From NCBI GenBank assembly GCA_964352085.1, contig CAYGPN010000007.1, forward strand, positions 27,725 through 91,724: DNA of 64,000 nucleotides. The letters are read 5' to 3'. Numbering within the stretch: position 1 is the first letter of the stretch; every line of letters begins with the position of its first letter. The position numbers and the translations under genes are program-made. Source of the DNA: an uncultured Gammaproteobacteria bacterium (lineage in GTDB: Bacteria > Cyanobacteriota > Vampirovibrionia > LMEP-6097 > CAYGPN01). Positions 6,420 through 8,908 of this stretch are shown here, one piece after another. A model generated the notes under the pieces. That model did no database searches, was not told where the DNA came from, and was given only the letters and a program-made list of their open reading frames with translations.

Positions 6420-8633
6420 TTAAAAGAACTTCTTAATCTTTCCTACAAATCTTTTAGCTTCATTTGAGATTCTATTTGCTGCTCTTCTAGCTTCTGCAGC
6501 AACTCTTTTAGCTTCTTCTCTAGCTTTCTTCTCTGCTCTTCTCGCTTCTTCTTTAGCTTTTACTTTATTTCTTCTAAATTCCCTGTCGATGCTATAGCCA
6601 ACTTCTTTTGCGCCTAATTGAACTAAACTCCCAGCAGTTTTAGCGGCTAATTTTAATGACTCTAGATATTCTTTGTCTTGGAATAACGCATAGGCATAAA
6701 CAGCATCATCTTTTAATTGACTAAATTTACTAATTTTTGAAGCTAGGAGATTGTGAGCATTCTCTGGAGGGGCAATACCAAGTATTGTTCTTCGCTTATG
6801 CAGAGAAAATTTTCCGTTAGTTCTCCAGCCTTTGTCAAATTCTGCAATAGATTTAGTGATCTCTTTTCCATCACTATTATATGTAATAGTTTGGTTTTCC
6901 ATGTCAATTCCAGAAACGGTTACGTAATGATCACTGATGCCTCTGCTGAATTCACTATCTATAAGTAAAATAGGTGGGATACCGTTTTTAATATAATGTT
7001 CAATGTCCTCATATTTAGCATTCTCTTTTACGCCAGTTGCAAAACCTCGTCTATGTGCTTCTTCTACTAATGCGCGAATTGGCTTAGCTTCATTATCATC
7101 AAAGTCTTTAAAAACATTATTCTCATCGGTTAAGCCATTTTGGTTTGTATCTACGTTGATACCATAGTAAAAGAGTACATTTGCCATTGCTGCAGCTCCG
7201 CAACTCTTATGTCTTTGAGCAAAATTACCAACATTTGATAAATGAATGCCAGGCTTCTCTGGGTCTACTGGTCTGTTGATATTACTAAAGTCAAAGTAGC
7301 TAGCAGAGATATGATTGATATTAATTAATTTTGAAATATCTGGCTTTGGAAGTTTGGCAAATAGCTCAGGTGATTTCTCAGCTTTTTTTACTGTTGATGG
7401 CTTTATTCCTGCTGCAAGTGCGTTTTGTAAAATAAATAGTTTGTTAGAATCTGCAATTTTTTTGTTCGCTAAGTCAATCAGCTCAGGAAAGTCAGAAGAC
7501 ATTAATTGTGTAAGCTCATTGATGGGAGTCTTTGCATCTTGGTAGCTTTGAAACAAAATAGCTGCTTCTGAATCTGGTCTTAAGATCTCAGGATTTTTAG
7601 CTGAGGCATTTTGAAGATGGATGTCCTGTGCTTTTTGTTCTTCTATAAATACTCTAGTATTGTAAAGTTGCCTTATTTTTACTTGAGTATCAAGATATTC
7701 GGGGCTGTCAGTTTTGCCTTCAAAAGATAACAATTCCAGTTCATTTCTTGAGTCTAGTTCTTGACTGGCATGTAAATGAGCTAAGAGTTCTTTATCTCCT
7801 TTTGTTTCAACAAGACTATTTATGATTGATTCACCGTTGAAAATTGCTTCAATAGATTCTATTTTTGCTCCATTGATTAAGGCTAGTTGACTTATGTTGA
7901 TTTTTTCTAATTCTTCTTGAAGGTTTTGTGCTGCTGCTGATGATTCCGTGCCAAGTTGAATCCGTGTGTCAGTCTCGATTTGAAGTTGCTGTCTTAAGTT
8001 TAAGAGGTTATTGAAATACTCAGCCTCCTGCTCGCTTAGTGGTGTTTCTCTTCCTTGAAGAGCTTTATTGACTTGTCCGTCTTCTTTTGCTTGCCTGTTC
8101 CAAAATCCTTCTAGTGCACCAACTTTTAGCAGCTCTACTTTTAACGTGTGGTATTCCTGAGATTCAGCTTGAGTGTTTTGAAGTTCTCTTTGCAAATCGC
8201 CCTTAAGATGAGAATAGACTGTTGAAAATCCATTACTTCGTATTAAACTTAAGTCGATTTGTTTTTCAAAAGAATATTCTTTAGGGCTATTGATTTTAGG
8301 GTCATCAAGGAATTTGAAAGGCTTCTCTGTGCTTTGGTTTCCATCAAGAATTTGTCTTTGTAGCTTTTCTATTTCTTCAGGGCTTTTATCAGTGCTAGGT
8401 GTGCCATCAAGAATTTGTCTTTGTAGCTTTTCTATTTCTTTTTGTGGCTTTTTAGGACTAATTGTTGCTTCTAGTGTTCTAAAAGAGCTGATATTTTTAC
8501 GTAGCTCAATTAGCCTTCTCTGACTGTTTTCTACATTTCTGCGTCTAACTTGCCCCTTAGGACTTTTATTTATTTCTTTAAAACTTTTAATACGAGAGAA
8601 ATCTCGATTATTTAATCTGTTTGCTTTTATCAT
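6420..8633 (-). CDS. large hypothetical protein with a C-terminal C39-like (papain-fold) cysteine peptidase domain and a basic tail; candidate secreted effector
   Basis: 737 aa. QRHKSCGAAAMANVLFYYG fits the C39 oxyanion-Gln/Cys motif, and DHYVTVSGID supplies the downstream His. The N-terminal region has a tandem 21-aa repeat (...EEIEKLQRQILDG... twice). The C-terminus is a Lys/Arg/Ala/Glu-rich tail. Confidence 0.6.
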   Translation of the reverse strand: MIKANRLNNRDFSRIKSFKEINKSPKGQVRRRNVENSQRRLIELRKNISSFRTLEATISPKKPQKEIEKLQRQILDGTPSTDKSPEEIEKLQRQILDGNQSTEKPFKFLDDPKINSPKEYSFEKQIDLSLIRSNGFSTVYSHLKGDLQRELQNTQAESQEYHTLKVELLKVGALEGFWNRQAKEDGQVNKALQGRETPLSEQEAEYFNNLLNLRQQLQIETDTRIQLGTESSAAAQNLQEELEKINISQLALINGAKIESIEAIFNGESIINSLVETKGDKELLAHLHASQELDSRNELELLSFEGKTDSPEYLDTQVKIRQLYNTRVFIEEQKAQDIHLQNASAKNPEILRPDSEAAILFQSYQDAKTPINELTQLMSSDFPELIDLANKKIADSNKLFILQNALAAGIKPSTVKKAEKSPELFAKLPKPDISKLININHISASYFDFSNINRPVDPEKPGIHLSNVGNFAQRHKSCGAAAMANVLFYYGINVDTNQNGLTDENNVFKDFDDNEAKPIRALVEEAHRRGFATGVKENAKYEDIEHYIKNGIPPILLIDSEFSRGISDHYVTVSGIDMENQTITYNSDGKEITKSIAEFDKGWRTNGKFSLHKRRTILGIAPPENAHNLLASKISKFSQLKDDAVYAYALFQDKEYLESLKLAAKTAGSLVQLGAKEVGYSIDREFRRNKVKAKEEARRAEKKAREEAKRVAAEARRAANRISNEAKRFVGKIKKFF
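8335..8462. repeat. tandem direct repeat (2 x about 63 bp) inside the 6420..8633 CDS
   Basis: ccatcaagaatttgtctttgtagcttttctatttctt occurs at 8341 and again at 8404. It encodes the duplicated EIEKLQRQILDG segment. Confidence 0.8.
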
Positions 8634-8796
8634 TTAATCCCCGTCTTAGTTAAAGATAATATATTGGATTAAAGTTAAATTCTGGTTAACTAATAAGGTA
8701 TAAAGCCTCTGTCCTAGTAGTTTTGAAAATGATTTCAGCTAAAGCTTGTGCTAATGGTCTAAGTCTTTTTGATTTATAGAGTTAGTATCTTAAAAA

Positions 8797-8829
8797 GCAA
8801 AAGGCACCTCAATTGAGATGCCTTTTTAA
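8797..8829. terminator. bidirectional intrinsic terminator downstream of tRNA-Ala
   Basis: aaaaGGCACCTCAATTGAGATGCCttttt: an imperfect 8-10 bp stem around CAATTG, flanked by an A-run and a T-run. Confidence 0.4.
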
Positions 8830-8832
8830 AAA

Positions 8833-8908
8833 TGGTGGACCCGAAAGGATTTGAACCTTCGACCTCCTCGGTGCAAGCGAGGCGCTCTACCAACTAAGCT
8901 ACGGGCCC
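8833..8908 (-). tRNA. tRNA-Ala (anticodon TGC)
   Basis: The reverse complement gggcccgtagcttagttggtagagcgcctcgcttgcaccgaggaggtcgaaggttcaaatcctttcgggtccacca is 76 nt and folds as a cloverleaf. The G3:U70 identity pair is present, the anticodon loop is cttgcac, and CCA is encoded. Confidence 0.88.

Follow-up and report, generated by a model that had tools for sequence, protein, structure and literature searches.

The window analysed here is a stretch of 64,000 nucleotides from contig CAYGPN010000007.1 (assembly GCA_964352085.1), and the gene in question is a minus-strand open reading frame (ORF) for a protein of 737 amino acids (aa). Inspection of the ORF showed that it carries the motifs QRHKSCGAAAMANVLFYYG and DHYVTV, together with the tail rich in K, R, A and E, all of which a first-pass annotation made from the letters of the DNA had placed in a protein of this length. 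A Shine–Dalgarno-like GGGGA lies 4 nt 5′ of the ATG. The protein has a single cysteine, Cys478, and was found to have neither a signal peptide nor a transmembrane segment, with a maximum 19-residue hydropathy of 0.97. Its sole recognizable module is a papain-fold peptidase domain of the C39 type, set between long N- and C-terminal regions that are orphans. The coordinates of the gene, of its parts and of the adjoining features are given in Table 1.

Table 1. Features of the peptidase gene and its surroundings, as positions within the window.
Feature	Position	Strand	Remarks
Peptidase gene	6420..8633	-	737-aa ORF
Basic N-terminal region, aa 1-130	8244..8633	-	K+R 29, D+E 19; predicted helical or disordered; no homologues
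Two tandem 21-aa units, aa 62-82 and aa 83-103 (KPQKEIEKLQRQILDGTPSTD / KSPEEIEKLQRQILDGNQSTE)	8325..8450	-	49/63 nt identical
Acidic region, aa 131-440	7314..8243	-	D+E 47, K+R 34; predicted all-helical; orphan
Predicted C39-like (Peptidase_C39_2) papain-fold domain, aa ~455-617	6783..7269	-	From Pfam, homologue alignments and model
Orphan C-terminal extension, aa 618-737	6420..6782	-	Predicted long helix, aa 654-736
tRNA-Ala(TGC)	8833..8908	-	Same strand as peptidase gene, 199 nt upstream of its start codon
Intrinsic-terminator-like hairpin	8799..8826	-	12-bp hairpin and T-run after the tRNA; separates tRNA-Ala from peptidase gene
145-aa ORF	5958..6395	+	Convergent with peptidase gene; 24-bp gap between 3′ ends
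Neighbours of peptidase gene: Nnr, SMR transporter, TPR protein, HD-domain protein			Housekeeping-type

Comparison with Pfam assigned the domain to Peptidase_C39_2 (PF13529), with a score of 34.0 bits against a gathering threshold of 24, over aa 468–586 (model positions 3–140 of 143). Peptidase_C39 (PF03412) also scored above its cut-off (24.8 against 22 bits, aa 473–604), and the same two families make up the precomputed Pfam annotation of the protein. When 1.84 billion representative proteins were searched exhaustively with phmmer, 18 matches were returned beyond the query itself (E = 4 × 10−7 to 8 × 10−4), with 27–37% identity and all limited to aa ~453–617. With the domain alone as query, a word-indexed search for homologues gave no match. 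To follow the candidate catalytic residues, three alignments of homologues were used, two of 18 sequences each (A1 and A2) and one of 31 sequences, to which a second set of relatives had been added (A3). Cys478, Gly479, Pro553, His569 and Trp603 were invariant in A1 and A2, and the Cys478-Gly479 pair and His569 were invariant in A3 as well. Gln473 was invariant in A3 (31 sequences; Q39 of the first sequence). Cys478 and His569 align to the Cys and His of ComA. The third residue of the triad was less easily placed. The column that holds D, N or H in the homologues falls on Tyr585 or on a gap, with Asn586 and Asp588 adjacent, and given a shift of one residue either of these could be the third triad residue. 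The C39/papain-fold domain proposed in the first-pass annotation is thus upheld by two families above their gathering thresholds, and the Cys and His whose conservation it had named as a check proved invariant in all three alignments.

The structural relatives of the domain were examined by profile and by model. Searched against solved structures, the profile of alignment A2 found the peptidase domain of ComA (3k8u, E = 2 × 10−15), a C39-like peptidase of Bacillus anthracis (3erv, 4 × 10−11), PCAT1 (1 × 10−8), the pseudomurein endoisopeptidase PeiR (4 × 10−8) and AvrRpt2 (6 × 10−4), with weak matches to Alr0975 (7 × 10−3), BtrH-like proteins (0.12) and GtgE (0.1–0.3). An alignment-based AlphaFold (AF2) model of aa 435–650 reached a predicted local distance difference test score (pLDDT) of 70.6 and a predicted template-modelling score of 0.69, and a helix at model residues 44–55 begins at the Cys. 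Foldseek matched this model to Alr0975, staphopain, AvrRpt2 and 3erv with probability 1.0 and template-modelling (TM) scores of ~0.5, and also to CtaG and Josephins. Alr0975 was the top match (E = 1 × 10−5). From sequence and model, aa ~455–617 are very likely a genuine C39-like papain-fold domain, and one that is predicted to be probably active.

The prominence of Alr0975 in the Foldseek results, with CtaG beside it and BtrH_N-type proteins at weak scores in the profile search, raises the question of whether the domain is a protease. In Alr0975, which is phytochelatin-synthase-like, and in BtrH and CtaG, the papain fold serves acyl transfer or amide-bond formation. The profile affinity, however, was far stronger for the C39 peptidases than for Alr0975 or the BtrH-like proteins, the TM-scores were only ~0.5, and the locus offers no biosynthetic gene context. 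Among the readings considered here, a non-proteolytic role is the one to which we give the least weight, and it would seem highly improbable.

The same searches also returned enzymes of the cell wall. In addition to PeiR in the profile search, Foldseek against viral models matched the endolysin-type peptidase domains of cyanophage and Gordonia-phage endolysin or lysozyme proteins, and surveys of phage lysins count PF13529 among endolysin catalytic domains. One relative (P0003) is encoded between SpoIID and LysM genes. Under this alternative the domain would cut stem or cross-bridge peptides of peptidoglycan, an action that has been proposed for C39_2 domains in phage endolysins, and the cationic amphipathic tail described below would aid the enzyme in reaching or crossing membranes. 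Against it, no signal peptide, cell-wall-binding domain, holin or phage genes were found, tblastn gave no match in 50,697 phage records, and a PHROGs search with the 737-aa protein gave no match. The context with SpoIID and LysM was seen at one locus and was not repeated in the other relatives, one of which lies in a cyanobacterial housekeeping context. A cell-wall peptidase is therefore considered very unlikely.

Outside the peptidase domain, the protein resembles nothing in the databases searched. Neither aa 1–450 nor aa 620–737 had a homologue among the 1.84 billion representative proteins (phmmer), and a word-indexed search of 5.8 billion clusters with the whole protein recovered only the query itself. 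The flanks had no match of any weight in Pfam, NCBIfam, PHROG, PADLOC or PDB. Several marginal matches were set aside. A PADLOC match of the 737-aa protein to UzuA (16 bits) was taken as noise, as were the matches of the whole protein in a PDB sequence search, and matches to DivIVA, DUF2963 and V-ATPase-E were below cut-off and arise from charged-helix composition. A single-sequence AlphaFold model of the whole protein (pLDDT 42.6) was too poor to use; at this low confidence its N-terminal half consists of helices and aa 654–736 of one long helix. The C-terminal extension contains an E/R/K-rich charged stretch (aa ~685–725), and the last 60 aa have 21 K+R against 9 D+E, a net charge of +12. 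The protein closes with 11 residues, KRFVGKIKKFF, that make up an amphipathic terminus of basic and aromatic character, with a hydrophobic moment of 0.78 that stands at the 99th percentile of the protein. The tail is compositionally periodic at offsets of 7, 11 and 18 residues, as is expected of an E/R/K-rich charged helix.

The N-terminal half had been described as coiled-coil-like and repetitive, with an exact 63-bp tandem duplication. A repeat is indeed present, as two tandem 21-aa units, but they are not exact copies: the identical positions fall short of the full 63 nt (Table 1), with an exact core of 37 nt and 12 identical residues (EIEKLQRQILDG). The similarity of the units was well above chance, as their BLOSUM62 window score was 72 and 30 shuffles gave no more than 42, and Tandem Repeats Finder reported no 63-nt period. 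Apart from this pair, no internal repeat in the N-terminal half rose above shuffle level, and a crude heptad test found no sustained a/d pattern of the kind that marks a coiled-coil register. The description of the half as a repetitive coiled coil was therefore not sustained, and its helical character is predicted only at low confidence.

The gene had also been described as horizontally acquired at a tRNA locus. The tRNA-Ala(TGC) is present at the distance of about 200 bp that had been reported, and a scan with Rfam found three tRNAs and nothing else. Searches with the 3′ end of the tRNA-Ala (16- and 24-mers) found no second copy in the 64 kb, even with 2–3 mismatches, and no integrase, transposase or other mobile gene was found among the neighbours of the peptidase gene. 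The tRNA is a neighbour only, with no attachment-site signature. The GC content of the gene (0.354) and its GC content at third codon positions (0.244) were both typical of the window, whose GC profile is flat (0.33–0.40), and its synonymous-codon log-likelihood did not depart from that of 41 long ORFs of the window (z = 0.07). The comparison of composition and codon usage that had been proposed as a check on a foreign origin, carried out here against the ORFs of the window, thus showed a typical gene. The flanking 145-aa ORF lies where it had been reported. It is convergent with the peptidase gene and therefore shares no operon with it. A sub-threshold match to DUF6941 (Pfam, 21 bits against a cut-off of 27) suggests that it may not be an ORFan but a member of a known, functionally uncharacterized family.

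The surroundings at larger scale are those of a core chromosome. In addition to the neighbours in Table 1, the wider window encodes astA, an M20 hydrolase, icd, glnA, hisB, rsmI, rpsA, thiL, glmU and lnt. It also holds a complete pyrimidine operon, in which pyrB, carA, carB, a pyrK-like gene, a class-1B pyrD, pyrF and pyrE are nearly contiguous at 39588–51308 (minus strand), and a short ribosomal protein S1 (363 aa) is encoded at 51464–52555; this region is core-chromosome context. With its typical composition, in these surroundings, and lacking both an integrase and a repeated tRNA 3′ end, the gene is probably native rather than recently transferred, and the claim of horizontal acquisition is not supported. 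Close relatives were sought in vain for the C39 protein and the Nnr neighbour in genome scans, and for the M20 hydrolase neighbour in a metagenome scan. Five ORFs of 317–624 aa had no Pfam or NCBIfam match (16625–18499, 22590–23867, 28320–29414, 54984–56525 and 58744–59697). Because the scans gave no close relative and several long ORFs are unmatched, the lineage appears poorly sampled. At 29427–33758 (minus strand) the window encodes a protein of 1443 aa that bears PKD and pre-peptidase C-terminal (PPC) domains and is matched by no NCBIfam model, and close to it, at 27027–28274 (minus strand), a platform protein of the PilC/GspF type.

Since C39 domains of ABC exporters remove leader peptides, we considered whether the protein could be a stand-alone leader peptidase. 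The C39 domain would then remove double-glycine-type leaders from a precursor of a bacteriocin or of a ribosomally made, post-translationally modified peptide (RiPP), with the flanks docking it to a transporter or the precursor. Its best relatives of solved structure are the double-glycine peptidase domains in ComA and PCAT1, PF03412 is above its cut-off, and a RiPP cluster of MNIO/Hvf type lies 6 kb away. However, an ABC transporter domain and transmembrane segments are absent from the protein, no small ORF with a GG leader and no exporter adjoin the gene, the nearby RiPP precursor carries a signal peptide of the Sec type, and unrelated genes on both strands intervene. Nor would leader removal explain the N-terminal arm of 450 aa. 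Such a role would seem improbable, to about the same degree as the cleavage of cell wall. The RiPP-like cluster appears to be of the MNIO, or bufferin-Hvf, type (14647–16582, plus strand). It includes a 91-aa precursor-like ORF with a signal peptide and Cys-rich repeats (GDHDCKGDHDCKGDHDCKG), followed by a homologue of MNIO maturases (BufB/HvfB models at ~225 bits, below cut-offs) and then by an HvfC-like protein.

The homologues were examined for features shared with the query. Most are short (150–460 aa), stand-alone C39_2 proteins. Soil metagenomes and Acidobacteria are the source of many, which have signal peptides or TPRs at the C-terminus. A subfamily from high-GC metagenomic sequences (P0003, P0011, P0014 and P0025–P0037; 230–330 aa) bears the closest likeness in kind. 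Like the query, its members lack a signal peptide and have an N-terminal region that is non-globular; they share with it the motifs CG(T/A)xS/AxANV and HYVTVSG as well as a C-terminal extension closing in a basic/aromatic amphipathic motif (…KKVWKSIFG and variants, against …GKIKKFF in the query). Identity within the domain is only ~25–34%, however, and the N- and C-terminal regions cannot be aligned. At five loci of this subfamily (L001, L005, L006, L007 and L008), the peptidase gene lies 35–60 bp downstream of a co-oriented partner gene, the product of which is a lipoprotein or a secreted YWTD-like beta-propeller or Cys-rich protein. Partner and C39_2 gene together appear to form a conserved, uncharacterized two-gene module. 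No such partner is present at the query locus. That the N-terminal half of the query might be such a partner in fused form (a Rosetta-stone arrangement) was considered and rejected, as the partners are beta-propeller or Cys-rich proteins with signal peptides or lipoprotein signals, whereas the query region is helical and without a signal peptide.

These features bear on whether the protein is exported as an effector or toxin. Export would be Sec-independent, by a type I or IV system through the basic C-terminal tail or by a type III system through the N-terminus; once inside a host, prey or competitor cell, the protein would cut its target with the papain-fold domain and be held on the membranes there by the amphipathic terminus. 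In keeping with this, the protein combines an orphan, helix-rich architecture and a single catalytic domain with the absence of a signal peptide; its C-terminus is strongly basic, only one Cys is present, and the effector proteases AvrRpt2 and GtgE are among the structural relatives. The high-GC subfamily also lacks a signal peptide while its upstream partner is a lipoprotein or secreted, a hint of non-classical export in the relatives. Yet the scanned ORFs of the window include no genes for secretion of type I, III, IV or VI, and only a PilC/GspF homologue is present, 18 kb away. No chaperone, immunity or partner gene adjoins, the downstream ORF being convergent; the composition is native, with no integrase and no att repeat; and the C-terminal charge is compatible with secretion but is not a specific signal. 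The layout of polymorphic toxins is likewise not seen, as the protein carries its catalytic domain internally and has no known trafficking domain, and the ORF downstream runs on the other strand. Export as an effector thus seems rather unlikely, though leader processing, cell-wall cleavage and acyl transfer are ranked below it as less likely. A bolder proposal is that the protein and the high-GC C39_2 subfamily make up a class of cysteine proteases, as yet undescribed, that seek membranes and are exported independently of Sec. The C-terminal motif would be an export signal, a membrane anchor or both, and in the low-GC lineage the enzyme would have acquired its unique helical targeting arm of 450 aa and become a lineage-specific effector. 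This we hold to be speculative and quite unlikely.

The explanation that we favour, with confidence that is about evenly balanced, is a resident chromosomal gene for a lineage-specific multidomain protein in which an intact stand-alone C39_2 peptidase is the sole recognizable module. In such an enzyme, Cys478, at the start of the central helix, would attack a peptide or isopeptide bond, with His569 on the beta-sheet as the base, Gln473 as the putative oxyanion-hole residue, and Asn586 or Asp588 orienting His569. The part of the orphan modules would be in targeting, not in catalysis. The helical N-terminal half of ~450 aa may be an arm that binds a substrate or partner or has a regulatory role, the E/R/K-rich helix a rigid spacer, and the KRFVGKIKKFF terminus a peripheral anchor on an anionic membrane surface. 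The enzyme would then act on a protein or peptide substrate from the cytoplasmic face of the producer's inner membrane, or close to it. This location is proposed only tentatively, and we lean towards it because there is no Sec/Tat signal and no membrane span.

Several points weigh against this explanation. A shift of one residue is needed to place the third member of the triad, because Tyr585 occupies the canonical Asp/Asn/His column, and the domain model is of moderate confidence only. Nothing in the gene context points to a substrate, and the roles given to the orphan N- and C-terminal regions are inferred from composition alone. The absence of a Sec signal fits type I, III, IV or VI export equally well. 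Native composition, in turn, may be compatible with an ancient transfer.

For now, the practical value of these results is a corrected annotation: the peptidase domain is real, there is no island, and the toxin reading is without evidence. The unusual features of the protein, namely the orphan flanks, the lone Cys and the amphipathic tail, are suggestive. C39_2 is a large and widespread stand-alone papain-fold family without an established substrate (PMC10318531), and a member with long appended modules and a lone Cys would offer a convenient way into the search for its partners and substrates. Should the amphipathic C-terminus that is shared with the high-GC subfamily turn out to be a targeting signal, a cellular location would be assigned to that whole subfamily.

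To place the protein among known systems, it was compared with known groups that share its domain or fold. The nearest of these is Peptidase_C39_2 itself (PF13529; COG3271, 'predicted double-glycine peptidase'; for example PDB 3erv), which the query resembles in score, in the Gln...Cys-Gly...His...Trp signature and in its papain-fold model. A recent classification of papain-like peptidases describes the members of C39_2 as peptidases of a single domain that are related to the C39 domains fused to ABC transporters but carry more structural decorations, and for which no substrate is defined (PMC10318531). The query domain is likewise not fused to an ABC transporter, but it differs from that description, and from most of the homologues found here, in lying between orphan regions of 450 and 120 aa, and the 27–37% identity noted above holds against any C39_2 member found. 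As no member has a proven substrate, membership of C39_2 does not assign a function. With the C39 domains of ABC exporters (ComA peptidase domain, 3k8u; PCAT1, 4ry2) the query shares the aligned Cys and His, and the same Cys/His mechanism is presumed. Unlike these exporters, it has no transmembrane or ATPase domains and no adjoining GG-leader substrate or exporter, and its oxyanion Gln is at −5 from the Cys rather than −6.

Likeness to the other groups was weaker. The PA2778 family (NCBIfam NF033920, C39 with TPR) matched weakly over the C39 part (28.1 bits against a cut-off of 150); the query protein has no TPR, while four distant homologues (P0005, P0008, P0012 and P0015) are C39-TPR fusions. 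A 594-aa TPR protein with a signal-peptide-like N-terminus is encoded at 8974–10758 (minus strand), directly upstream of the tRNA-Ala on the same strand as the peptidase gene. A functional link to it by analogy with PA2778 was rejected, since the similarity is that of TPRs in general and a tRNA and a terminator lie between the two genes. The effector proteases AvrRpt2 (C70) and GtgE share the fold and the stand-alone context, at the remote profile similarity given above, whereas no secretion system or host context is evident for the query. The protein thus lacks the features that define PCAT-type C39 exporters, the PA2778 family, tRNA-linked islands, polymorphic toxins and endolysins. Instead, it is a new architecture within the known C39_2 family, with orphan flanks, a single cysteine and an amphipathic tail that it shares in kind with one subfamily.

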